From NCBI RefSeq assembly GCF_056712565.1, contig NZ_CM160072.1: DNA of 64,000 nt; one strand, written 5' to 3'. Below, piece by piece: positions 20,391 to 60,600 of this stretch (the first letter of the stretch is position 1; each line of letters starts with the position of its first letter). Made by a program: the position numbers and the translations under genes. Under the pieces are notes generated by a model. It worked only from the letters and a program-made list of their open reading frames with translations. It was not told where the DNA came from and ran no database searches.

Positions 20391-21428
20391 ATGTTTTCCG
20401 CATTGCGCCACCGTACCGCTGCCCTGGCGCTCGGCGTATGCTTTATTCTCCCCGTACACGCCTCGTCACCTAAACCTGGCGATTTTGCTAATACCCAGGC
20501 ACGACATATTGCTACTTTCTTTCCGGGACGCATGACCGGAACTCCTGCAGAAATGTTATCTGCCGATTATATTCGCCAACAGTTTCAGCAAATGGGTTAT
20601 CGCAGTGATGTTCGGACATTTAATAGTCGGTATATTTATACCGCCCGCGATAATCGCAAGAGCTGGCATAACGTGACGGGAAGTACGGTGATTGCCGCTC
20701 ATGAAGGCAAAGCGCCGCAGCAGATCATCATTATGGCGCATCTGGATACTTACGCCCCGCTGAGCGATGCTGACGCCGATGCCAATCTCGGCGGGCTAAC
20801 GTTACAAGGAATGGATGATAACGCCGCAGGTTTAGGTGTCATGCTGGAACTGGCTGAACACCTGAAAAATACGCCTACCGAGTATGGTATTCGATTTGTG
20901 GCGACCAGCGGCGAAGAGGAAGGAAAATTAGGCGCTGAGAATTTACTCAAGCGGATGAGTGACACCGAAAAGAAAAATACGCTGCTGGTGATTAATCTCG
21001 ATAACTTAATTGTTGGCGATAAGCTGTATTTCAACAGTGGCGTAAACACACCTGAAGCAGTAAGGAAATTAACGCGCGACCGGGCGCTGGCAATTGCCCG
21101 CAGCCATGGAATTGCCGCCACCACAAATCCAGGTTTGAATAAAAACTATCCGAAAGGCACCGGGTGTTGTAATGACGCAGAAATATTCGACAAAGCCGGT
21201 ATTGCTGTACTTTCGGTGGAAGCGACTAACTGGAATCTTGGCAATAAGGATGGTTATCAGCAACGCGCAAAAACAGCCGCATTCCCTGCGGGAAATAGCT
21301 GGCATGACGTAAGACTGGATAATCAACAGCATATTGATAAGGCACTTCCTGGAAGAATAGAACGTCGCTGCCGTGATGTTATGCGGATAATGCTACCGTT
21401 GGTGAAGGAGCTGGCGAAGGCATCTTAA
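20391..21428 (+). CDS. iap: Alkaline phosphatase isozyme conversion aminopeptidase
   Basis: 345-aa ORF with signal peptide and M28-peptidase-like core; divergent from cysD as in E. coli. Confidence 0.9.
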   Translation: MFSALRHRTAALALGVCFILPVHASSPKPGDFANTQARHIATFFPGRMTGTPAEMLSADYIRQQFQQMGYRSDVRTFNSRYIYTARDNRKSWHNVTGSTVIAAHEGKAPQQIIIMAHLDTYAPLSDADADANLGGLTLQGMDDNAAGLGVMLELAEHLKNTPTEYGIRFVATSGEEEGKLGAENLLKRMSDTEKKNTLLVINLDNLIVGDKLYFNSGVNTPEAVRKLTRDRALAIARSHGIAATTNPGLNKNYPKGTGCCNDAEIFDKAGIAVLSVEATNWNLGNKDGYQQRAKTAAFPAGNSWHDVRLDNQQHIDKALPGRIERRCRDVMRIMLPLVKELAKAS

Positions 21429-21552
21429 TGGGTTTGAAATGATTACTCCCTTGCCTGCAGGAAATCAATGCCACCAGAAACAGAGTATAAAAAAGGGTGC
21501 AGGAGACCAAACCATCACAATTCAGTACGCGGGGTTTTACCCCGCGTGGTGG

Positions 21553-21705
21553 CTACTTCTTCGATTCGTAAGCGAGAACTGCCTTAAACTCCATACCACG
21601 TTCTCTGATACTCAACTCACACAACGAGTCGCCTACCATCAACGTGAATCCCAGTACTGTACAACACAGTACGATGATTGCCACAAGGGCATATTTTGTC
21701 AGCAT
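21553..21705 (-). CDS. Hok/Gef-family type I toxin (small membrane peptide), HokE-like
   Basis: Translated by hand from the minus strand: [50 protein letters not shown] (50 aa, ATG to TAG). Hok-family hallmarks: N-terminal TM helix, conserved SLCE motif and C-terminal AYE(S/P)K. GGGAGG Shine-Dalgarno 7 nt upstream. Below the 60-aa cutoff, so absent from the track. Confidence 0.8.
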
Positions 21706-21969
21706 GTCTTGCCTCCCTGCAAAGAAGAGACTAACATCCGAATTGCTTAGGTTCGAACGTAGGCCTCAGGTTGATAGAAATATCGCCTGGGGCTTTTGTC
21801 CATCTGGAACCTCGCGAATGCTTAACGCCAGACAGCCTCAAGCACCCAATGCCATTCTATACCTGTTAATTCTCCCTGCGACGTTCTCGTTTAAATGCCG
21901 GAATGCTGCTCGCAAAATAAAAACGCCCCCATCATTTCTGACAGAGGCGTTTAATTTATCCGGCAATAT

Positions 21970-22704
21970 TTACCCTTCGTGTAATCCACATTCCCTTTTT
22001 AAGCCAAAGAAACGCGTTTCTTCTTCCGCCATGCCGGGTTCCCATTTACGGGTTGTATGGGTATCGCCCACCGATAAATATCCTTCATCCCATAATGGGT
22101 GATATTTCAGGCCATGTTTTTGCAGGTACTGATAAATAGTTCGGTTATCCCAGTCGATAATCGGCAGCACTTTAAATACGCCACGCTGAATTGCCAGCAC
22201 CGGTAAATTGGCGCGGCTGCCGGATTGTTCACGGCGCAGGCCAGCAAACCAGGTTTGCACATTCAGTTCTTTCAGCGCCCGGTTCATCGGTTCGACTTTG
22301 TTGATGTCATTGTACTTTTCAATGCCTTCAACGCCCTGCTCCCACAGTTTGCCGTAGCGTGCTTCCTGCCAGGCGGCGCTTTCGGTAGCACGGTACACTT
22401 TCAGGTTGAGCTTGAGTTTATCCGTTAACTCGTCAATAAAGCGGTAGGTTTCCGGGAACAGATAGCCGGTATCGGTGAGGATCACTGGAATATCCGGGCG
22501 AATCTGATTCACCAGATGCAGACTCACCGCCGCCTGAATGCCAAAGCTGGAAGAAAGTACATATTCACCGGGCAGATTATCCAGCGCCCAGGCTACGCGG
22601 CCTTCAGCGTCCAGTTTTTCCAGTTGGGCGTTAGTTTCCGCCAGCGCCAGAATCCGGTCTACCTTTGGCAGTTCGTTCAGGGCGTTTAGATCGAGTTTGG
22701 ACAT
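21970..22704 (-). CDS. cysH: Phosphoadenosine phosphosulfate (PAPS) reductase
   Basis: Start placed at [23 protein letters not shown]... (244 aa); C-terminal ECGLH motif; followed by cysI and cysJ. Confidence 0.93.
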
Positions 22705-33878: not shown

Positions 33879-34664
33879 TTAGCGCACTAAATAACCGCCA
33901 TCAACCACTAATAAATGTCCGTTGACATAATTCGATGCCGGACTTGCGAGGAATACGGCTGCGCCCATTAAATCCTGAGTATCGCCCCAACGGTTTGCCG
34001 GAATATAATCAAGAACGCGCTGGTTAGTTTCTGGATTACTACGGGTCGCCAGAGTGATATCGGTAGCGTAATATCCCGGGGAAATACCATTCACCTGAAT
34101 ATTATATTGACCTAATTCATCGCAATAGGCTTTGGTGAATCCGGCAAGAGCATGTTTAGTGGCAGAATAAGCCGGTGACCATTGACCACCTGAGTAAGAG
34201 AACAATGAACAGATATTAATGATTTTACCGCTTTTCTGCGGGATCATAATTTTTGCAGCTTCATAGCTTAACTCGAATGCGGCGGTAAGGTTCACGTCAA
34301 TCATCGGATCCCAGTCGGCACGCCCGAAGTCCAGCACCTTATTCAGCTTACATATACCGGCATTGTTAACCAGAATATCGACGGTACCGAAACGCTCACA
34401 GCAGGCAGCGATAATCTTCTGCGGTGCGCCTTCTGCGGTGATATCCACCTGCATGAAGTCCACTTCAACACCCTGTTTTTCAATCATTTCCTTTGTTTCG
34501 CCGTTATCTTTGACGAAACTTGGAATAAAGACATTTGCGCCAGCCTTGGCCAGCGCCATGGCAAATGCCTGGCCTAATCCGCTATTCCCGCCGGTAACAA
34601 TTGCTGTTTTACCTTTCAGGGAGAAAAAATCCATTGAGAACGCATTGAGAGATTCGATTGACAT
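33879..34664 (-). CDS. ygcW: Short-chain dehydrogenase/reductase
   Basis: Start at MSIESLNAFSMDFFSLKGKTAIVTGGNSGLGQ (TGxxxGxG SDR motif), 261 aa; GGAG RBS upstream. Confidence 0.85.
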   Translation of the reverse strand: MSIESLNAFSMDFFSLKGKTAIVTGGNSGLGQAFAMALAKAGANVFIPSFVKDNGETKEMIEKQGVEVDFMQVDITAEGAPQKIIAACCERFGTVDILVNNAGICKLNKVLDFGRADWDPMIDVNLTAAFELSYEAAKIMIPQKSGKIINICSLFSYSGGQWSPAYSATKHALAGFTKAYCDELGQYNIQVNGISPGYYATDITLATRSNPETNQRVLDYIPANRWGDTQDLMGAAVFLASPASNYVNGHLLVVDGGYLVR

Positions 34665-34688
34665 AGTTAGCTCCAATTTCCGTAAGGC

Positions 34689-34736
34689 AAAAAAAAAGAA
34701 AGGTAACTTCCCCCGCGAGAGGGAAGTTACCTTTCT
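34689..34736 (-). terminator. Intrinsic-terminator-like hairpin plus U9 tract in the ygcW leader (candidate attenuator)
   Basis: Perfect 14–16 bp inverted repeat (aaaggtaacttccc / gggaagttaccttt, 8-nt loop) preceded on the + strand by nine A residues, which gives a hairpin followed by U9 on the minus strand about 25 nt upstream of the ygcW start codon. Confidence 0.5.
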
Positions 34737-34910
34737 CATTATCTCTGGTAACTGGAGATAATTTTTAGCATAAGGGCATAACTGCTAATGTGATCGTAAT
34801 CACAGAGTGATGTTCGTATTATCAAATAGTTTTAAAAAGCAGAAGCGTGATTACTCTCACACAACACCTTTTCTTTCCATGTTATTTCTTATTGCAATTA
34901 CTAGAGACCT

Positions 34911-34958
34911 GAGAAAAGTAATCCACCTGAAAGGGCGGCTTACTTTTCTCTTTTTTTT
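34911..34958 (+). terminator. Intrinsic-terminator-like hairpin plus T8 tract in the yqcE leader (candidate attenuator)
   Basis: 11-bp inverted repeat (gagaaaagtaa ... ttacttttctc, 18-nt loop) followed by eight T residues on the + strand, ending about 25 nt before the yqcE ATG. Confidence 0.45.
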
Positions 34959-34982
34959 GTCTATTACAAATGGGAATACGAT

Positions 34983-36260
34983 ATGCAACACAACTCATAT
35001 CGCCGTTGGATAACCCTCGCGATAATTAGTTTTAGCGGCGGCGTTAGTTTCGACCTGGCTTATTTACGTTATATTTATCAAATTCCCATGGCAAAATTTA
35101 TGGGATTCAGCAATACCGAGATAGGTTTAATAATGAGTACCTTTGGTATTGCGGCCATTATTTTCTATGCCCCTAGCGGCGTTATTGCCGATAAATTTTC
35201 ACACCGCAAAATGATTACTTCCGCGATGATCATTACCGGATTACTGGGCCTGATAATGGCAACATATCCACCACTGTGGGTAATGCTCTGTATTCAGGTC
35301 GCCTTTGCGATAACGACGATTTTAATGCTGTGGTCGGTGTCGATTAAAGCCGCATCGTTGCTGGGCGATCATAGCGAGCAAGGGAAAATTATGGGCTGGA
35401 TGGAAGGGCTGCGCGGCGTCGGTGTAATGTCGCTGGCGGTGTTTACCATGTGGGTCTTTTCTCGCTTTGCACCGGATGACAGCGCCAGCCTGAAAACGGT
35501 CATTATTATCTATAGTGTGGTTTACATTCTGCTGGGCATTTTGTGTTGGTTTTTTGTTAGCGATAACAACAATCTGCGCAGTGCCAATAACGAAGAAAAA
35601 CAGTCATTCCAGCTTAGCGACATCCTGGCCGTTTTGCGCATCAGCACCACCTGGTATTGCAGCATGGTGATTTTTGGTGTCTTCACCATCTACGCCATTC
35701 TGAGTTACTCCACCAACTATCTGACCGAAATGTACGGCATGTCACTGGTGGCAGCGAGCTACATGGGGATTGTGATCAACAAAATCTTCCGCGCGTTATG
35801 CGGCCCACTTGGCGGCATTATCACCACCTACAGCAAAGTGAAATCCCCTACCCGCGTGGTCCAAATCCTTTCCATCATCGGTTTGCTGGCATTGACAGCC
35901 CTGCTCGTTACGAACTCTAACCCGCAATCGGTCGCGATGGGGATTGGCTTGATTTTATTACTGGGATTCACCTGTTACGCCTCACGCGGGCTGTATTGGG
36001 CCTGCCCTGGCGAAGCGAGAACACCGTCTTACATTATGGGCACCACGGTAGGTATTTGTTCGGTGATTGGATTCCTGCCGGATGTCTTCGTTTACCCGAT
36101 TATCGGCTACTGGCAAGACACCCTGCCCGCTGCAGAAGCCTACCGCAACATGTGGCTAATGGGCATGGCGGCGCTTGGCATGGTGATCATCTTTACCTTT
36201 TTGCTGTTCCAAAAAATTCGTACTGCTGATAGCGCCCCCGCAATGGCTAGCAGCAAGTAA
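34983..36260 (+). CDS. yqcE: MFS-family transporter
   Basis: 425-aa multi-TM ORF MQHNSYRRWITLAIISFSGGVSFDLAY... Confidence 0.85.
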   Translation: MQHNSYRRWITLAIISFSGGVSFDLAYLRYIYQIPMAKFMGFSNTEIGLIMSTFGIAAIIFYAPSGVIADKFSHRKMITSAMIITGLLGLIMATYPPLWVMLCIQVAFAITTILMLWSVSIKAASLLGDHSEQGKIMGWMEGLRGVGVMSLAVFTMWVFSRFAPDDSASLKTVIIIYSVVYILLGILCWFFVSDNNNLRSANNEEKQSFQLSDILAVLRISTTWYCSMVIFGVFTIYAILSYSTNYLTEMYGMSLVAASYMGIVINKIFRALCGPLGGIITTYSKVKSPTRVVQILSIIGLLALTALLVTNSNPQSVAMGIGLILLLGFTCYASRGLYWACPGEARTPSYIMGTTVGICSVIGFLPDVFVYPIIGYWQDTLPAAEAYRNMWLMGMAALGMVIIFTFLLFQKIRTADSAPAMASSK

Positions 36261-36286
36261 GCCAGGAAAATTACAGGAGAAAAATC

Positions 36287-37765
36287 ATGTCGAAAAAATA
36301 CATCATAGGGATTGATGGCGGAAGTCAGAGCACAAAAGTGGTGATGTACGATCTGGAAGGTAATGTGGTTTGCGAAGGCAAAGGCTTATTGCAGCCGATG
36401 CACACGCCAGATGCCGATACCGCAGAACATCCTGACGACGATTTATGGGCATCATTATGCTTTGCCGGCCACGATTTGATGAGCCAGTTTGCCGGGAATA
36501 AAGAAGATATTGTCGGCATTGGCCTGGGATCCATCCGTTGCTGCCGTGCGTTATTGAAAGCCGATGGCACGCCTGCTGCGCCGTTGATTAGCTGGCAGGA
36601 TGCACGCGTAACGCGTCCCTACGAACACACTAATCCTGACGTGGCATATGTCACCTCTTTTTCGGGTTATCTGACGCACCGTTTAACGGGCGAATTTAAA
36701 GATAATATCGCCAACTATTTTGGTCAGTGGCCGGTGGATTATAAGACCTGGGCATGGAGCGAAGATGCCGCGGTAATGGAAAAGTTTAATATCCCCCGCC
36801 AGATGCTTTTTGACGTGCAAATGCCGGGCACCATTCTTGGGCATATCACACCACAAGCTGCGCTGGCGACACATTTCCCGGCTGGGCTGCCGGTTGTTTG
36901 TACCACCAGTGATAAACCGGTAGAAGCTCTGGGAGCCGGGTTACTGGATGATGAAACGGCGGTAATTTCTCTTGGCACCTATATCGCGTTAATGATGAAC
37001 GGCAAAGCACTGCCGAAAGATCCGGTCGCGTACTGGCCGATTATGTCTTCTATTCCGCAAACATTGCTGTATGAAGGTTACGGTATTCGCAAAGGCATGT
37101 GGACGGTGAGCTGGCTGCGCGACATGTTAGGCGAGTCGTTAATTCAGGATGCCAAAGCACAGGATCTTTCACCGGAAGATTTGCTCAACAAAAAAGCGTC
37201 TTGCGTGCCACCTGGTTGTAATGGGCTGATGACGGTGCTGGACTGGCTGACCAATCCGTGGGAACCGTACAAACGCGGAATTATGATCGGCTTTGATTCC
37301 AGTATGGATTACGCATGGATATATCGTTCGATACTGGAAAGCGTGGCGCTGACGCTGAAGAATAATTACGACAATATGTGTCATGAAATGAATCACTTTG
37401 CAAAGCATGTGATCATTACTGGCGGCGGTTCGAACAGCGATCTGTTTATGCAGATTTTTGCCGACGTGTTCAACCTTCCGGCACGCCGTAACGCCATTAA
37501 CGGTTGTGCAAGTCTGGGGGCAGCGATTAATACGGCGGTAGGTCTGGGGCTATACCCGGATTACGCAACGGCTGTCGACAAAATGGTTCGCGTGAAAGAT
37601 ATCTTTATGCCTGTTGAGAACAATGCCAAACGCTACGACGCGATGAATAAAGGCATTTTCAAGGAGTTAACCAAACATACTGATGTAATCCTGAAAAAAT
37701 CGTATGAAGTGATGCATGGGGAATTGGGGAATGCGGATTCGATCCAGAGCTGGTCGAATGCGTAA
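36287..37765 (+). CDS. ygcE: FGGY-family carbohydrate kinase
   Basis: 492-aa ORF MSKKYIIGIDGGSQSTKVVMYDLEG... with FGGY kinase N-terminal motif. Confidence 0.85.
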   Translation: MSKKYIIGIDGGSQSTKVVMYDLEGNVVCEGKGLLQPMHTPDADTAEHPDDDLWASLCFAGHDLMSQFAGNKEDIVGIGLGSIRCCRALLKADGTPAAPLISWQDARVTRPYEHTNPDVAYVTSFSGYLTHRLTGEFKDNIANYFGQWPVDYKTWAWSEDAAVMEKFNIPRQMLFDVQMPGTILGHITPQAALATHFPAGLPVVCTTSDKPVEALGAGLLDDETAVISLGTYIALMMNGKALPKDPVAYWPIMSSIPQTLLYEGYGIRKGMWTVSWLRDMLGESLIQDAKAQDLSPEDLLNKKASCVPPGCNGLMTVLDWLTNPWEPYKRGIMIGFDSSMDYAWIYRSILESVALTLKNNYDNMCHEMNHFAKHVIITGGGSNSDLFMQIFADVFNLPARRNAINGCASLGAAINTAVGLGLYPDYATAVDKMVRVKDIFMPVENNAKRYDAMNKGIFKELTKHTDVILKKSYEVMHGELGNADSIQSWSNA

Positions 37766-37810
37766 GTGAGGAAGGCCGGGCGGGAAACTGCCCGGCATGA
37801 ACATACCTGA

Positions 37811-37900
37811 ATGGTTATCCCCGCTGACGCGGGGAACTCATATCCGGTTTTTGCTGGTGGGCCGCGCCGTTCGGTTTATCCCCGCTGGTGCGGGGAACTC
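37811..37900 (-). CRISPR. Minimal orphan type I-E CRISPR array: two repeats and one 32-nt spacer
   Basis: Repeat A at 37872..37900 (cggtttatccccgctggtgcggggaactc) is the reverse complement of the E. coli type I-E repeat GAGTTCCCCGCGCCAGCGGGGATAAACCG with one mismatch. Repeat B at 37811..37839 (atggttatccccgctgacgcggggaactc) is a degenerate copy with 4 mismatches, as expected for a terminal repeat. Spacer 37840..37871: atatccggtttttgctggtgggccgcgccgtt. Location between ygcE and queE matches the K-12 CRISPR-II position. Confidence 0.85.
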
Positions 37901-38230
37901 TCTAAACATAACCTATTATTAATTAATTATTTTTTAAGCCAGTCACAATCTACCAACTTTACAGTATCACACAAACAACACATCCATTATGTTAAAGAGC
38001 ACTTAATCCATTGATTAAAAAGATAAATATTTAAAATAACTCTATTCAAACTAAAATCTACCAAACTTTACCGCAATAATTTTCACTCCAGCGAAAAATT
38101 AACGCCACAGAATTTGTAGAGAATGATAATGATTAGTCCAGAATGGGCAAAATGGAGGTTTTTCAGAGGCGACAAAGAATATAAATGAGTAGAAGTCTTT
38201 ACAGATTCCACCCATTTATAACGCTTATAA
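37901..38230 (-). promoter_or_regulatory. AT-rich putative CRISPR leader adjacent to the less-degenerate repeat
   Basis: About 330 bp of very AT-rich non-coding sequence abutting repeat A, on the side where a type I-E leader is expected. Extent not defined from sequence. Confidence 0.5.
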
Positions 38231-38238
38231 ATGTTTAA

Positions 38239-38910
38239 TCAGGCAATATTCAAATATTTATGTGTCTGCATCGACAAACGCCAGTTGCGCGCAATGCAGG
38301 TATCGATACATAAACGCGTAGCATCTTCCTTCTGGCTAATTGGCTGAAGTGCAATGACTCGCGGTTTATCATCGGTCAGCGTCGCCAGCAATTCGTCCAG
38401 TGCTTCAATATCACGTACGCGTCCCACTGGATGCTTGATTTCGTTGGCTCGCTCCAGGGCTTGCGACAATACTTCATAGCCGCCGCGCATGTTCAGCTTT
38501 GGCGATACGGTAACCCAGGTATTCGGTGTGCAGCGTACCTCATGAGTACCACTGGTTTCGATCTGGCAGCTAAAACCGTTCTTTTCGAGCAGGTCAGTCA
38601 GTGGCAGCAAATCATGAATGCAAGGCTCACCACCCGTAATCACCACGTGACGCGCGGTGTATCCCTGACGGCCAATGACAGCCAGCAAATCTTCACTGCT
38701 CGCCGCCCCCCACTTATCACTCTCTTTGGTCTTCGCCAGAATGCTGAAAAGGGAGACTTCCCGATCCTCAAGCTTTTCCCAGGTGTGTTTGGTGTCGCAC
38801 CAGGCACAGCCAACCGGACATCCCTGTAAACGAATAAAAATGGCGGGGACGCCGGTAAAGTAACCCTCACCTTGCAGGGTCTGGAACATCTCGTTAATCG
38901 GGTACTGCAT
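38239..38910 (-). CDS. queE: 7-carboxy-7-deazaguanine synthase (radical SAM)
   Basis: 223-aa ORF MQYPINEMFQTLQGEGYFTGVPAIFIRLQGCPVGCAWCDTKHTW... with radical-SAM Cys motif. Confidence 0.9.
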   Translation of the reverse strand: MQYPINEMFQTLQGEGYFTGVPAIFIRLQGCPVGCAWCDTKHTWEKLEDREVSLFSILAKTKESDKWGAASSEDLLAVIGRQGYTARHVVITGGEPCIHDLLPLTDLLEKNGFSCQIETSGTHEVRCTPNTWVTVSPKLNMRGGYEVLSQALERANEIKHPVGRVRDIEALDELLATLTDDKPRVIALQPISQKEDATRLCIDTCIARNWRLSMQTHKYLNIA

Positions 38911-39082: not shown

Positions 39083-39691
39083 ATGTTTAGAATATTCATC
39101 GCGTTTATATTTATTTTCAATTTATCAGGTTGCGGTTATAACGATATTCAAACCTATGATGAACAGGTTAATGCCTCCTGGTCAGAAGTATTAAATCAAT
39201 ATCAACGTCGCACCGATCTTATTCCTAATCTTGTCGCTAGTATTAAAGGTTACTCCAGCCATGAACAAGAGGTACTAGAAGCCGTAACATTGGCACGTAG
39301 TCAGGCTAATCGCGCCAGTAGCGATCTTCAGAAAACTCCGGGAGATGAACAAAAATTACAAGCCTGGCAACAGGCGCAGGCGCAGGCGCAGGTGACTCGC
39401 ACTCTCGGGCAGTTAACGATTATTAGTGAGCGTTACCCTCAGTTAAAGGCTCAAGAGCTCTATCAAAACTTAATGGTACAGCTCGAAGGAAGTGAAAATA
39501 GAATTGCCGTTGCGCGAGGAAGATATATTAAAGCCATTGAACAATATAATGTCACTATCCGCAAATTCCCCGCTGTATTAACCGCAAAGGTCATGGATTA
39601 CACACCAAAGAAAAATTATTTGCCGGATGATGTCACCGCAGTAAGTAAAGCCCCAACAATAGATTTTAGCCAGAATGCTAATGCTCATTAA
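39083..39691 (+). CDS. lemA: LemA-family protein
   Basis: 202-aa ORF with N-terminal lipoprotein-type signal/anchor (FIFIFNLSGCGYN) and LemA-like helical domain; AT-rich codon usage. Confidence 0.8.
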   Translation: MFRIFIAFIFIFNLSGCGYNDIQTYDEQVNASWSEVLNQYQRRTDLIPNLVASIKGYSSHEQEVLEAVTLARSQANRASSDLQKTPGDEQKLQAWQQAQAQAQVTRTLGQLTIISERYPQLKAQELYQNLMVQLEGSENRIAVARGRYIKAIEQYNVTIRKFPAVLTAKVMDYTPKKNYLPDDVTAVSKAPTIDFSQNANAH

Positions 39692-39704
39692 GCGGGGACG
39701 TTCT

Positions 39705-40598
39705 ATGCGAAATTTTATCTTCCTTATGGCTTTCTTCTGTTCATCTGTGTTTGCTACACAAATTCCAGTACCTGAATCACCCAGGTATGTGAATGACTTA
39801 ACCGGCACATTAACAAACAGCGAAGTAAACACCCTGACCAACCAGATTAAAGCCCTGACGCAAAAAAACCACGCACAGTTGGTCGTGTTAGTGGTTGATA
39901 CAACAGGCGATGAAACCATTGAGCAGTACGCAACGCGGGTATTCGATAGCTGGAAACCGGGTGATAAAGACCGTGATGATGGCGTTCTACTGTTAGTCGC
40001 CTGGCAGGATCATACCGTGCGTATTGAAATCGGTTACGGGCTGGAAGGTATTATTACGGATGCACAGTCCGGGAAAATTATTCGCAACAGTATTATTCCG
40101 GCATTTAAAAAAGGCGACCTGGCTGGTGGTTTACAAAAGGGGATCAACGATATTGAAAGTCGCCTGACGGGGAATAATTCAGCAACGATAACACCGACCG
40201 ATCACCCTTTGTCCTTTAGCGGTTGGTGGGCTTTATTAGTCTGGGCGATAATACTGACGTTTATTTCTGCCAGAGGATATATCAAAACGTTGGGAGTAAT
40301 TTGCTTCGCAGCCATTGTACTGGCCTTTGTTTTACCTATAGCAGGTTTCAGCGGAAGCTGGGGAGTACTCACAACATTACTCTGCTTCGCCACACCGTTT
40401 CTGGCAGTTGCCATCGCTTTTACCCCCTTCGGCAAAAAGGTTCGGGATTCGATGCGTGATGCCAACCAGCCATCACGCCATACAAGAAGCAATTCTTCCT
40501 CCCACTATTCATCATCGTCATCCTCTTCATTCGACAATGACAATTTTAGCGGTGGTGGCGGTTCATCTGGTGGCGGTGGCGCTTCCGGGCGCTGGTAA
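39705..40598 (+). CDS. TPM-domain (DUF477/YgcG-like) membrane protein, paralog 1, with Gly/Ser-rich C-terminal tail
   Basis: Start chosen at MRNFIFLMAFFCSSVFA (signal peptide); alternative ATGs lie at 39675 and 39681. TPM domain (LVVLVVDTTGDETIEQYATRVFDSWKPGDKDRDDGVLLLVAWQDHTVRIEIGYGLEG), 2–3 TM helices, poly-Ser linker, C-terminus GGGGSSGGGGASGRW. Confidence 0.75.
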   Translation: MRNFIFLMAFFCSSVFATQIPVPESPRYVNDLTGTLTNSEVNTLTNQIKALTQKNHAQLVVLVVDTTGDETIEQYATRVFDSWKPGDKDRDDGVLLLVAWQDHTVRIEIGYGLEGIITDAQSGKIIRNSIIPAFKKGDLAGGLQKGINDIESRLTGNNSATITPTDHPLSFSGWWALLVWAIILTFISARGYIKTLGVICFAAIVLAFVLPIAGFSGSWGVLTTLLCFATPFLAVAIAFTPFGKKVRDSMRDANQPSRHTRSNSSSHYSSSSSSSFDNDNFSGGGGSSGGGGASGRW

Positions 40599-40612
40599 CA
40601 AAAGGAATTGAT

Positions 40613-41761
40613 ATGCGTATTTTTCTCTTACTTCTGATGCTATGCGGTTTTCAGGTATTCGCTGAACGATTGCCTTCAGTGACTGACTTAACCGGGACAT
40701 TAACGACAGAAGAACAAAGTGCTTTAAATCAACAATTACAGACTCTCGAGCAGCAAAACCACTTCCAGGTGGCCGTGTTGGTTACGCCGACAACAGGGGG
40801 CAAAAACATTAAACTTGCAGCCTCGCAGAGATACGGGGTATATCACTGGAAACCCGTTGGAGAGAAGCGATATGGCGAAGGTATTTTAATTCTCGTCGTT
40901 TGGCCGGAAGGGCTGGCGTCAATGAAGATTGGACATGGACTGGAACAGATGTTGCCGCCGGAACAAGCTGCGCAAATTGTTCGTTACCATATGCAGCCAG
41001 AATTCGAAAAAAACAATCTCTTTGCTGGATTAACGGGCGGAATTGAAAGCATCGCACAGTTTACCCATATCAAAGCGAACCTTAGCCCTTTGGATGCTTT
41101 AGCCAATCATCTGTTTGCTAATCCGCAACTTTCGCTGCCATGCCTTGCCTGGACAGTGCTGATGATCGTTGCCATCATTGTCCTCTGGCGATTTACCAGC
41201 CGTCCAGGACCTGGCATATGGATGATATCAATGATTACACCTACGGTCTGGTTTTTCTGCTTTCAGGACGATGTCATCATTCGGCGGGTGTCGGTCGTTT
41301 GTTTTAGTTTATTTTTCGCAGCAATCTGCTGGCAGCGTCTCGCAGTAGTTTTTAATATGTGCCGCGTATTTCCTATGATGCTGGCCCCAAAAAATAAAAA
41401 CGCGAAAGTGAAAAAACAAAAGAAGACTCCGCAAGTTCGTGAATCAGGACGAAATTCATTGTTTGTCGTGATGCTGATAATTATTGTGGGATGGTGCCTG
41501 GTGTTCGCCAGTAATAAAGATATTGCATTCATCTCAACAATTATTGGGTTAATTGATCATTTTATCGGCCCAATAACCATTGCTGGCATCGTTCTGCTGA
41601 TCATTGTGGCCAAATTTACTGGCAATCTTAAGCTGGGGTCAGGAGAAAAAAGCAACAGGAAAACGGGGAATCGTAATGCTCATTCTCGCTCTTCGTCGAG
41701 AAATTCTTTCCGCGGTGGTGGCGGTTCTTCAGGAGGCGGCGGTTCATCCGGCCGTTGGTGA
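40613..41761 (+). CDS. TPM-domain membrane protein, paralog 2 (more divergent, extended multi-TM region), same C-terminal tail
   Basis: 382-aa ORF with ATG start and AGGA RBS; signal peptide MRIFLLLLMLCGFQVFA; TPM-like N-terminal domain; long hydrophobic and lysine-rich middle region; C-terminus RGGGGSSGGGGSSGRW. Confidence 0.75.
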   Translation: MRIFLLLLMLCGFQVFAERLPSVTDLTGTLTTEEQSALNQQLQTLEQQNHFQVAVLVTPTTGGKNIKLAASQRYGVYHWKPVGEKRYGEGILILVVWPEGLASMKIGHGLEQMLPPEQAAQIVRYHMQPEFEKNNLFAGLTGGIESIAQFTHIKANLSPLDALANHLFANPQLSLPCLAWTVLMIVAIIVLWRFTSRPGPGIWMISMITPTVWFFCFQDDVIIRRVSVVCFSLFFAAICWQRLAVVFNMCRVFPMMLAPKNKNAKVKKQKKTPQVRESGRNSLFVVMLIIIVGWCLVFASNKDIAFISTIIGLIDHFIGPITIAGIVLLIIVAKFTGNLKLGSGEKSNRKTGNRNAHSRSSSRNSFRGGGGSSGGGGSSGRW

Positions 41762-41766
41762 TCGTA

Positions 41767-42660
41767 ATGCGCTTAATCTTTATTCTATTCACTTTGTGGT
41801 GCCTTCCTGGGCTTGCCCAGCAAATTGCTGTGCCGGAACTGCGCCAACAGGTGACCGATATTACTGGTACGTTAAGCACTTCTGAACAACAATCACTGAC
41901 ACAGCAACTGCAGGATATTACACATAAAACACGGGCGCAGGTCGCTGTATTAGTAGTGCCGTCCACCGGAGACGATTCCATTGAACAATATGCTACAAGG
42001 GTTTTTGATAGCTGGAAACTGGGAGATAAGCAGAGAAACGATGGTATTTTACTTCTGGTTGCCTGGGAGGATCATGCTGTTCGTATTGAGGTTGGCTACG
42101 GGCTGGAAGGGGTGGTTACCGACCTGCAAGCGGCGAAGATTATCAGGGATATATTGATCCCTGCCTTCAAAAGTGATGACCTGATGGGTGGATTAACACT
42201 GGCAAGCGAAAATATCGGCGCGCTTCTGTTGAATGGTGAATTACCGGAAGACAGGGGGGATTATTACAGTATCAATCCCCCTATTCCATTATCGCTTGCT
42301 GTAATTATATTGCTGGCGGTACTTTCATATTTTATTGTTTTTACCGATCCGTCGAATTTACCCTGGATCACTCTCACTGGCGCCATTTACGGGATGGTAT
42401 TCCTCTATGTTGCCGAGCCAGGACCATGGACCAATTTAATCGTTGCCTGCGGTATGTTAACGCCTTTTGCGATCGTACCACTGGTTGTTTTTTGGCTTAT
42501 CGTCAATAAAAAGCTACGCGCCAAATACAAAAAACTCAGTAAAGAAAGAGCTTCAAGAAAAGGTTCTTCTTCATCCTCTTCCGGTGGAGGCTCAAGTGGC
42601 GGCGGATTTAGCGGCGGGGGCGGTTCTTCTGGCGGTGGCGGCGCGTCCGGTCGCTGGTAA
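41767..42660 (+). CDS. ygcG: TPM-domain membrane protein, paralog 3 (probable ygcG ortholog), same C-terminal tail
   Basis: Start at MRLIFILFTLWCLPGLA (the track ORF begins 4 codons earlier at a TTG). TPM domain about 70% identical to paralog 1 by eye (VAVLVVPSTGDDSIEQYATRVFDSWKLGDKQRNDGILLLVAWEDHAVRIEVGYGLEG); C-terminus GGGSSGGGFSGGGGSSGGGGASGRW. Adjacent to eno as ygcG is in K-12 (from memory). Confidence 0.75.
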   Translation: MRLIFILFTLWCLPGLAQQIAVPELRQQVTDITGTLSTSEQQSLTQQLQDITHKTRAQVAVLVVPSTGDDSIEQYATRVFDSWKLGDKQRNDGILLLVAWEDHAVRIEVGYGLEGVVTDLQAAKIIRDILIPAFKSDDLMGGLTLASENIGALLLNGELPEDRGDYYSINPPIPLSLAVIILLAVLSYFIVFTDPSNLPWITLTGAIYGMVFLYVAEPGPWTNLIVACGMLTPFAIVPLVVFWLIVNKKLRAKYKKLSKERASRKGSSSSSSGGGSSGGGFSGGGGSSGGGGASGRW

Positions 42661-46762: not shown

Positions 46763-46833
46763 TGAATTGTCCTGAAAATTGCGGGTCCGTCAGGTGTAAA
46801 CCTGTGACCAGAATAGAAGTGAGTTAGTAACAC

Positions 46834-47169
46834 CTACCCAATCAGCACGTTAATTTTGGCTTTAATGAGTTGTAATTCCTCTGGGGCAACTGTTCCTTTC
46901 TTCGTTGCTCCTCTTGCCCGCCAGGCGATACTTTTTACCTGATCAGCTAACGCTACGCCATCACGTTCCTGACCGGATAGAACAACTTCGAACGGATATC
47001 CTTTTGATTGCGTTGTACAAGGAACACACAGACACATACCTGTTTTGTTGTTGTACATGAACGGACTCAGGACAACAGCCGGACGATGTCCGGCTTGCTC
47101 GCTACCTTTTGTCGGGTCAAAATCAACCCAAATCAGATCGCCCGTATCGGGTACGTATCGGCTTACCAT
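46834..47169 (-). CDS. mazF: Type II toxin MazF (mRNA interferase)
   Basis: 111-aa [66 protein letters not shown] sequence (here [14 protein letters not shown]...). Confidence 0.9.
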   Translation of the reverse strand: MVSRYVPDTGDLIWVDFDPTKGSEQAGHRPAVVLSPFMYNNKTGMCLCVPCTTQSKGYPFEVVLSGQERDGVALADQVKSIAWRARGATKKGTVAPEELQLIKAKINVLIG

Positions 47170-47417
47170 TACCAGACTTCCTTATCTTTCGGCTCCCCCC
47201 AGTCGATATTCTCGTGGAGGTTTTCCGGCGTGATGTCGTTGACCAGTTCAGCAAGCGTAAATACGGGCTCTTTACGCACTGGCTCAATAATTAATTTGCC
47301 ATCCACCAGGTCAATCTTCACTTCATCATCAATATTCAGATTGAGCGCCTGCATTAACGTAGCCGGGATCCGCACCGCCGGTGAATTTCCCCAACGCTTT
47401 ACGCTACTGTGGATCAT
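47169..47417 (-). CDS. mazE: Type II antitoxin MazE
   Basis: 82-aa [50 protein letters not shown]...; stop overlaps mazF start. Confidence 0.9.
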
Positions 47418-60231: not shown

Positions 60232-60600
60232 AATAAAAAAAGGGAGCACTGTATTCACAGTGCTCCCGGTTCGTTTCGCAGCATTCCGGCTACTTTTGTT
60301 GCTCCCTGCTCATCCTTGACAACTTTTCCTCTGGCCTTGCGGCCAATCGTTCATCCTGAACTATTGCTTCCTGCTCACACCACCCCGATGTGATACTTCA
60401 TCCTGAAGTGTTCCTGGCCTTCCTGACCCACCGAATCATCCTGACCGGTTCTCATTCTCCATCCTGGAGGTGTCCTTTAACGCGTCCTGCGTCATCCTCT
60501 TCGCTTCATCCAGAAGCCTTTCCCTGAAACACCATCCTGGTGTGTCCTTCAGAAGTGTCATCATCCTGATGTTCACTTCGTTGTCTGACTCCCTGTCGAC
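60232..60600 (-). ncRNA. csrB: CsrB small RNA (CsrA-sequestering)
   Basis: 369-nt span on the minus strand carrying about 20 CAGGA(U/A)G / AGGA motifs (seen as catcctg repeats on the + strand), 5' end GTCGACAGGGAGTCAGAC, and a 3' terminator hairpin (gggagcactgtattcacagtgctccc) followed by a U-tract. The length equals that of K-12 csrB. Confidence 0.88.

Follow-up and report, generated by a model that had tools for sequence, protein, structure and literature searches.

A one-spacer CRISPR2.2-3 array with a spacer from lambdoid-prophage rusA in Escherichia coli lacking cas-E genes

The intergenic region between ygcE and queE (ygcF) of E. coli is the CRISPR-II locus (PMC3903273). K-12 and O157:H7 carry two arrays there: CRISPR2.3, beside a leader on the queE side, with six spacers in K-12 and one in O157, and CRISPR2.2, which consists of three degenerate units, each with 'AT' at its 5' end, the two being parted by about 450 bp of AT-rich DNA. 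A published variant, CRISPR2.2-3, is one array between ygcE and ygcF/queE that replaces CRISPR2.2 and CRISPR2.3, otherwise about 0.5 kb apart; it occurs in strains without cas-E and has very few repeats, two in strains rich in uropathogenic E. coli (UPEC) factors (PMC3903273, PMC4489801). Here we describe an array of this kind in a 64-kb stretch of DNA (the window, taken at its whole length), which matches the chromosome of the E. coli type strain, ATCC 11775 = DSM 30083, at 100% identity, and trace its sole spacer to a phage gene.

Anatomy of a fused array at the CRISPR-II locus

The array and its borders comprise the following features.

36287-37765, plus strand: ygcE, FGGY-family carbohydrate kinase, bordering the array on the terminal-repeat side
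37811-37839, minus strand: R2, chimeric terminal repeat, GAGTTCCCCGCGTCAGCGGGGATAACCAT
37840-37871, minus strand: the sole spacer, 32 nt, AACGGCGCGGCCCACCAGCAAAAACCGGATAT, with lambdoid-prophage rusA as its source
37872-37900, minus strand: R1, leader-proximal type I-E repeat of type A (GAGTT...), GAGTTCCCCGCACCAGCGGGGATAAACCG
37901-38238, minus strand: leader, homologous to K-12 leader 2.3
38239-38910, minus strand: queE (ygcF), bordering the leader

The array lies in the ygcE/queE intergenic region by RefSeq annotation and is read along the minus strand from the leader (38238-37901) through R1 (37900-37872) and the spacer (37871-37840) to R2 (37839-37811). An earlier note on this DNA, made from the letters alone, had proposed two 29-bp I-E repeats around a 32-nt spacer with an AT-rich leader on the consensus-repeat side, and this anatomy was borne out in each part. 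R1 differs from the E. coli I-E consensus GAGTTCCCCGCGCCAGCGGGGATAAACCG at one position (G12A) and R2 at 4 of its 29 bp, with a start-to-start period of 61 bp returned by a repeat finder. Aligning the repeats with the consensus, a check that the note had proposed, upheld the I-E match, and no consensus match with three or fewer mismatches arose in 100 shuffled windows (0/100). The core CCCCGC-N4-GCGGGG occurs at only two sites within the 64 kb, R1 and R2. A search for additional repeats, likewise proposed, found no third copy within the 64-kb window at up to eight mismatches; the remaining consensus matches, with 9-10 mismatches at 5162 and 51769, are unrelated sites. Each repeat is predicted to form the canonical hairpin, in which a 7-bp stem closes a tetraloop; the variants G12A of R1 and C13T of R2 are both located in this loop.

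The leader is AT-rich and 338 nt long, and differs from the K-12 CRISPR2.3 leader at 14 of 339 aligned positions (about 96% identity), with only four of these differences within the 200 nt closest to R1. A promoter and terminator scan of the leader returned nothing beyond shuffle expectation, and an Rfam scan of the window left the array without a match. Two repeats and one spacer fall short of the multiple units by which CRISPR arrays are recognized; automatic CRISPR annotation commonly requires at least three repeats, and among the listed genomes carrying the spacer none has a RefSeq CRISPR annotation at this site.

Unit-by-unit comparison with K-12 and O157 revealed a chimeric junction within R2. 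Its 5' 'GA' is of CRISPR2.3 type, and its 3' 27 nt (...GTCAGCGGGGATAACCAT), together with the ygcE flank, are those of the CRISPR2.2 terminal repeat of K-12 and O157; beside ygcE, the CRISPR2.2 terminus of K-12 and O157:H7 reads ATGTTCCCCGCG(T/C)CAGCGGGGATAACCAT, and R2 with its flank is 98.6% identical to the K-12 CRISPR2.2 terminal repeat over 138 bp. The window array is the single-array form CRISPR2.2-3. Recombination in an O157-like arrangement, with the crossover falling between positions 3 and 12 of the repeat and linking the last repeat of CRISPR2.3 to that of CRISPR2.2, would yield exactly the observed structure. The 'GA' as against 'AT' 5' ends of the repeats point to fusion by deletion as the direction of this rearrangement, the alternative being an ancestral single array that was split later by insertion.

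Two other strains carry the same backbone in different states. Strain 100416 (NZ_CM128593.1) has leader 2.3 and a solo chimeric terminal repeat without any spacer, strain 1190 has the chimeric terminal repeat and flank as in the window with four unrelated spacers, and the iap-cysH site of both is devoid of cas-E genes. The occurrence of zero, one and four spacers on one backbone in cas-E-less strains thus argues that the window array is one state of a series generated by repeat-repeat recombination. In strain 100416 an IS421 transposase also lies between hok and iap, a further decay step, such that both loci are affected in that strain.

Other parts of the window were recorded alongside. Between ATCC 11775 and K-12 (33879-38910 compared), divergence at fourfold-degenerate sites is 15-22% in ygcW, ygcE and queE, 8.7% in yqcE and 1.8% in eno. 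Divergence is unusually high in the genes next to the array, for which old recombination is a possible cause. The queE-eno region (39083-42660) contains a LemA-family gene along with three genes for TPM-domain proteins, of which one is annotated as a partial pseudogene, where K-12 has only yqcG and ygcG. The CsrB sRNA (RF00018, 382 bits) at 60232-60591 and the mazEF toxin-antitoxin pair at 46833-47416 are ordinary and K-12-like.

An empty cas-E site and a resident type I-F system

The site that houses the cas-E operon in other strains lies within the window.

20391-21428, plus strand: iap, left boundary of the empty cas-E / CRISPR-I site
21429-21969, no strand: empty cas-E site, 541 bp, with hok and sok only
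21553-21705, minus strand: hok (Hok/Gef coding sequence), within the iap-cysH interval
21690-21847, minus strand: sok RNA (Rfam RF01794, 112 bits)
21970-22704, minus strand: cysH, right boundary of the empty cas-E site

The iap-cysH interval holds CRISPR-I and eight cas genes in K-12, and hok and eight cas genes in O157:H7. In the window its 541 bp are free of repeats, of a CRISPR2.1 leader and of cas remnants, and a word-11 blastn of the full cas-E loci of K-12 (E2) and O157 (E1) had no match in the window beyond R1, R2 and the hok/sok flank. The earlier note had taken the iap-cysH cas locus to be absent from the window; the site itself is present (20391-22704), and it is the cas-E operon that is missing from it. 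Because iap, hok/sok and cysH all lie in the window without cas-E, the evidence for loss is stronger than that on which the note had relied. An iap-hok/sok-cysH order without cas genes is known as 'arrangement B', derived by deletion from the cas-E1 arrangement A (Almendros et al. 2014, PMC3903273), and every strain has the hok/sok pair except E2 strains (PMC3903273).

The search for cognate genes was extended to the chromosome with a composite query, in which a 7-kb strain-specific anchor was joined to cas3 and cas7-cas1 of both cas-E variants. The ATCC 11775 chromosome ranked first, with matches in three places, every matching genome having at least two. Two of these places probably correspond to a tRNA-Ser gene within the anchor and a second, identical copy of it, and the third is accounted for by cross-matching, at up to 92 bits locally, between the I-F repeats of the anchor and the second I-F array. 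E1- or E2-like cas DNA was not detected in the ATCC 11775 chromosome by this query, whose reach is the chromosome at megablast-level similarity to E1/E2, such that a very divergent or plasmid-borne I-E operon would escape it. None of cas3, cse1, cse2, cas7, cas5, cas6e, cas1 and cas2 was found in E1- or E2-like form in the chromosome. Given the empty iap-cysH site and the lack of detectable E1/E2-like cas DNA, the array is an orphan as to its cognate genes, so that the central proposal of the note, a minimal leader-bearing ygcE-queE array without cognate cas genes, stands on both the RefSeq flanks and the cas-E search.

The note had also allowed for cas genes elsewhere in the genome. Such genes exist, although they are of type I-F, with cas-E not detected in the chromosome. 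At the infA-clpA locus of ATCC 11775, outside the window (NZ_CP033092.2 3125218-3134994), a type I-F system is laid out in the order CRISPR4.2, cas6f, csy3, csy2, csy1, cas3f, cas1f and CRISPR4.1. Its csy2 has an internal stop and a pseudogene annotation, and its 28-nt repeat, GTTCACTGCCGTACAGGCAGCTTAGAAA, bears no sequence relation to the 29-nt repeat of type I-E; the system is non-cognate to the I-E array and probably defective. UTI89, S88, APEC O1, NU14 and others share, at 100% identity, a 7-kb stretch of the I-F locus that includes csy2 and the spacers of CRISPR4.2, and the csy2 stop is therefore presumably common to that lineage. In a survey, strains with I-F systems or without CRISPR-Cas belonged mostly to phylogroup B2 (PMC12736100), a literature context that suggests a host of phylogroup-B2 type.

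A spacer derived from lambdoid rusA

The spacer is present in 230 of 5,426 complete E. coli genomes, ATCC 11775 included, at 100% identity and exactly once in each; carriers include CFT073, Nissle 1917, IHE3034 and APEC strains. Comparison of spacer identity across strains, which the earlier note had called for, thus returned one invariant sequence among the 230 carriers, whereas of the cas-E-less strains 100416 has no spacer and 1190 has four others. A BLAST search against GenBank phages and PLSDB plasmids, also suggested there, yielded chance-level matches only (E>=0.2). A weak match of 25/30 lies within a RusA-family gene on the Klebsiella michiganensis plasmid NZ_CP071395.1 (63188-63217), and suggests that rusA is conserved over the targeted stretch, which encodes ...HQQKPDID....

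In Cascade, every sixth base of the crRNA spacer is flipped out and unpaired. We therefore searched IMG/VR using the spacer with every sixth position masked, as a wobble-degenerate pattern. One viral contig matched, and a repeat of the pattern search gave the same single contig. The site reads ...CAGC ATG, then the protospacer AACGGTGCGGCCCACCAGCAAAAACCGGATAT, then TGAT. Protospacer and spacer agree at 31 of 32 positions, the sole mismatch falling at spacer position 6 as a synonymous GGC/GGT glycine change, and the 5' PAM is ATG, which with AAG forms the consensus of interference-proficient I-E PAMs (PMC6568314). By our estimate, a chance match with 27 specified bases is negligible (4^27, about 2e16). 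A 119-aa open reading frame, encoding a RusA-like Holliday-junction resolvase (phrog_140, E=1.3e-24; PF05866), contains the protospacer in frame. A gene for a RecA-dependent nuclease/DUF968 protein borders rusA on one side, and Dcm and Dam methylase genes and a Q-like antiterminator on the other; the prophage also holds lysis genes, a lambda-type terminase and, upstream, a cI-type repressor. This context is a lambdoid nin region.

The exact RusA protein was found on 103 contigs (200 index blocks), whose carriers are named E. coli by their sources, with one cluster member from Salmonella; GCA_001606755.1 (contig LOCS01000141.1) is one prophage carrier. Protospacer, mismatch and ATG PAM were identical at all six further loci examined, and hence at 7/7 loci. 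None of the 5,426 complete E. coli genomes has the allele, their best rusA being about 70% identical, and the prophage DNA has no close relative among GenBank phages and complete E. coli genomes. Among GTDB species representatives the masked spacer pattern gave no match, not even to the array, and the genome of the window is apparently outside that set. As the allele is missing from complete genomes, GenBank phages and GTDB representatives alike, the phage is rare. Genuinely derived from a phage, the spacer is a memory, the record of a past encounter with a lambda-like phage, and its rusA source is now identified for the type strain, CFT073, Nissle 1917 and IHE3034. A search for the spacer sequence in the searchable literature found no paper, and its rusA target may be a new, if small, detail.

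Two further readings of the spacer were set aside. It shares CGGTTT and GCTGGTG with R1 and was considered as a degenerate repeat, a candidate dropped once the external, in-frame 31/32 protospacer had been found. An 11-mer, GCAAAAACCGG in crRNA orientation (window 37845-37855), also occurs in spacer 1 of K-12 CRISPR2.3, the leader-proximal one. It is probably shared by chance, as the sequences diverge directly after it, with flanks differing on both sides, and, judged by eye, none of the forward frames of the K-12 spacer reads as rusA.

The PAM bears on which system took up the spacer. In Diez-Villasenor et al. 2013 (PMC3737337), the K-12 variant (cas-EK/E2, type-T repeats GTGTT...) takes spacers from CTT (=AAG) protospacers, with CAT (=ATG) undetected, whereas CTT and CAT protospacers alike serve the O157 variant (cas-EO/E1, type-A repeats GAGTT...). 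R1 and R2 are both of type A. Type-A repeats, an ATG PAM and the retained hok/sok pair are three concordant features, suggesting that the spacer was acquired by a cas-E system of O157 type (E1), since lost by deletion.

History, present state and relation to known systems

The whole of these data is very probably best explained by a fused CRISPR-II relic whose cas-E genes were lost, an inert fossil of immunity. Its spacer would have come from a lambdoid phage, taken up at a rusA protospacer beside an ATG PAM by an ancestor that carried a cas-E1/EO system of O157 type. Repeat-repeat recombination would then have joined CRISPR2.3 to the last repeat of the degenerate CRISPR2.2 array and trimmed it to one spacer, and a separate deletion between iap and hok/sok would have taken out cas3-cas2 together with the CRISPR2.1 array and leader. 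We infer this order of events, and with it the timing of the 2.2/2.3 rearrangement relative to cas loss.

In cis the array retains the parts of a working unit. R1 supplies a normal 8-nt 5' handle (AUAAACCG) and R2 a normal 21-nt 3' handle (GAGUUCCCCGCGUCAGCGGGG), and the degenerate 3' end of R2 lies outside the predicted crRNA. Cas6e cutting after each hairpin would thus give AUAAACCG, the spacer and GAGUUCCCCGCGUCAGCGGGG, a canonical 61-nt crRNA; with the leader present, hairpins predicted and both handles normal, Cas6e/Cascade could make one such crRNA. Against the sampled phage allele it would meet a consensus PAM, and its only mismatch would fall at a non-pairing position. With its canonical ATG PAM, rusA offers a concrete target on which to test whether relic arrays can be re-armed. 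Without Cas6e, Cascade, Cas3 and Cas1-Cas2 there would be no processing, no interference and no spacer acquisition; because its cognate cas genes are missing, the array is presumably inactive at present, as judged from gene content.

The earlier note had raised the possibility of a self- or cas-targeting spacer, which might explain the loss or exclusion of cas-E. This reading has an analogy in the orphan CRISPR4 (I-F) arrays of E. coli, which, like the window array, are short, conserved and found in lineages without the cognate cas genes, and which hold spacers against cas-F genes (PMC12736100). However, CRISPR4 spacers match cas1f, cas3f or csy3, whereas the window spacer matches phage rusA and no cas gene. 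Those anti-cas arrays are reportedly also described in a 2016 study by Almendros and colleagues. Against the K-12 CRISPR-I array and cas operon, the spacer reaches at best 20/32, within the 17-20/32 of shuffled spacers. In the 5,426 complete genomes no cas gene matched at E<=1, both cas-E variants and cas-F included; the array itself was the sole match, in one place per genome, and none of the 230 carriers has a second, non-array match that could serve as a self-target. With phage rusA a much better external source (31/32, ATG PAM), an anti-cas or self-targeting origin has next to no probability and is refuted at the sensitivity used, removing such a spacer as the cause of cas-E loss for the window array. 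Cross-use of the array by the resident I-F system at clpA-infA, via Cas6f and the Csy complex, is likewise highly improbable. The strain does encode cas1f, cas3f, csy1, csy3 and cas6f together with two I-F arrays, but the I-F repeat is unrelated to that of I-E and csy2 carries its internal stop. Cas6 enzymes are also repeat-specific, and the ATG PAM suits I-E, unlike the I-F PAM, CC.

A further reading is that the array is a standby memory kept by selection, such that a re-acquired cas-E module would gain a working leader and immunity to the rusA phage at once. The fully intact array in cis fits this idea, as do the similarity of leader 2.3 across cas-E1, cas-E2 and cas-less strains and the documented replacement of cas-E modules (PMC3903273). 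The leader also diverges much less from K-12 than do fourfold-degenerate sites of the flanking genes (4.1% versus 11.7%, p=3e-5). In contrast, it does not differ from neighbouring intergenic DNA (4.1% versus 2.8%, p=0.22), and in this comparison with K-12 no selection specific to the leader was found. Other cas-E-less strains lack the spacer or carry unrelated ones, as neutral decay predicts, and one spacer shared by 230 genomes is expected from recent common ancestry over 32 nt. Selective maintenance as standby memory is therefore unlikely, and we are equally doubtful that orphan array and leader have been kept in E. coli of ST73/ST95 type as a memory that can be re-armed; were it so, cas-E re-acquisition would confer an immediate acquisition site and immunity to the rusA-bearing family of lambdoid phages. 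We thus favour the inert CRISPR-II relic.

As such a relic, the array can be placed among known systems. It shares with K-12 MG1655 CRISPR2.3 and CRISPR2.2 the locus, a leader of about 96% identity, and the ygcE-side terminal repeat with its flank. K-12 MG1655, however, has six spacers, type-T repeats, the AT-rich stretch of about 450 bp and three degenerate CRISPR2.2 units, and retains its cas-E2 operon 16 kb away, whereas the window array has one spacer and type-A repeats, the intervening stretch is absent and there is no cas-E. BL21-type arrays supplied with cas genes in trans resemble it in being chromosomal I-E arrays with leader 2.3 in a cas-E-less strain, but they are multi-spacer arrays, and in the available text of that work acquisition in BL21-AI was scored on reporter plasmids rather than the chromosomal array (PMC3737337).

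The closest match is CRISPR2.2-3, which the window array resembles in its site, in being one array and not two, in its type 2 (I-E) repeats and in its queE-side leader 2.3. That form is said to have been reported by Diez-Villasenor and colleagues in 2010 as well. The element is real and of a kind already known, short CRISPR-II arrays of cas-E-less E. coli having been described since 2010. No structural difference separates the window array from CRISPR2.2-3, to which the present analysis adds the junction inside the terminal repeat and the series of zero, one and four spacers.
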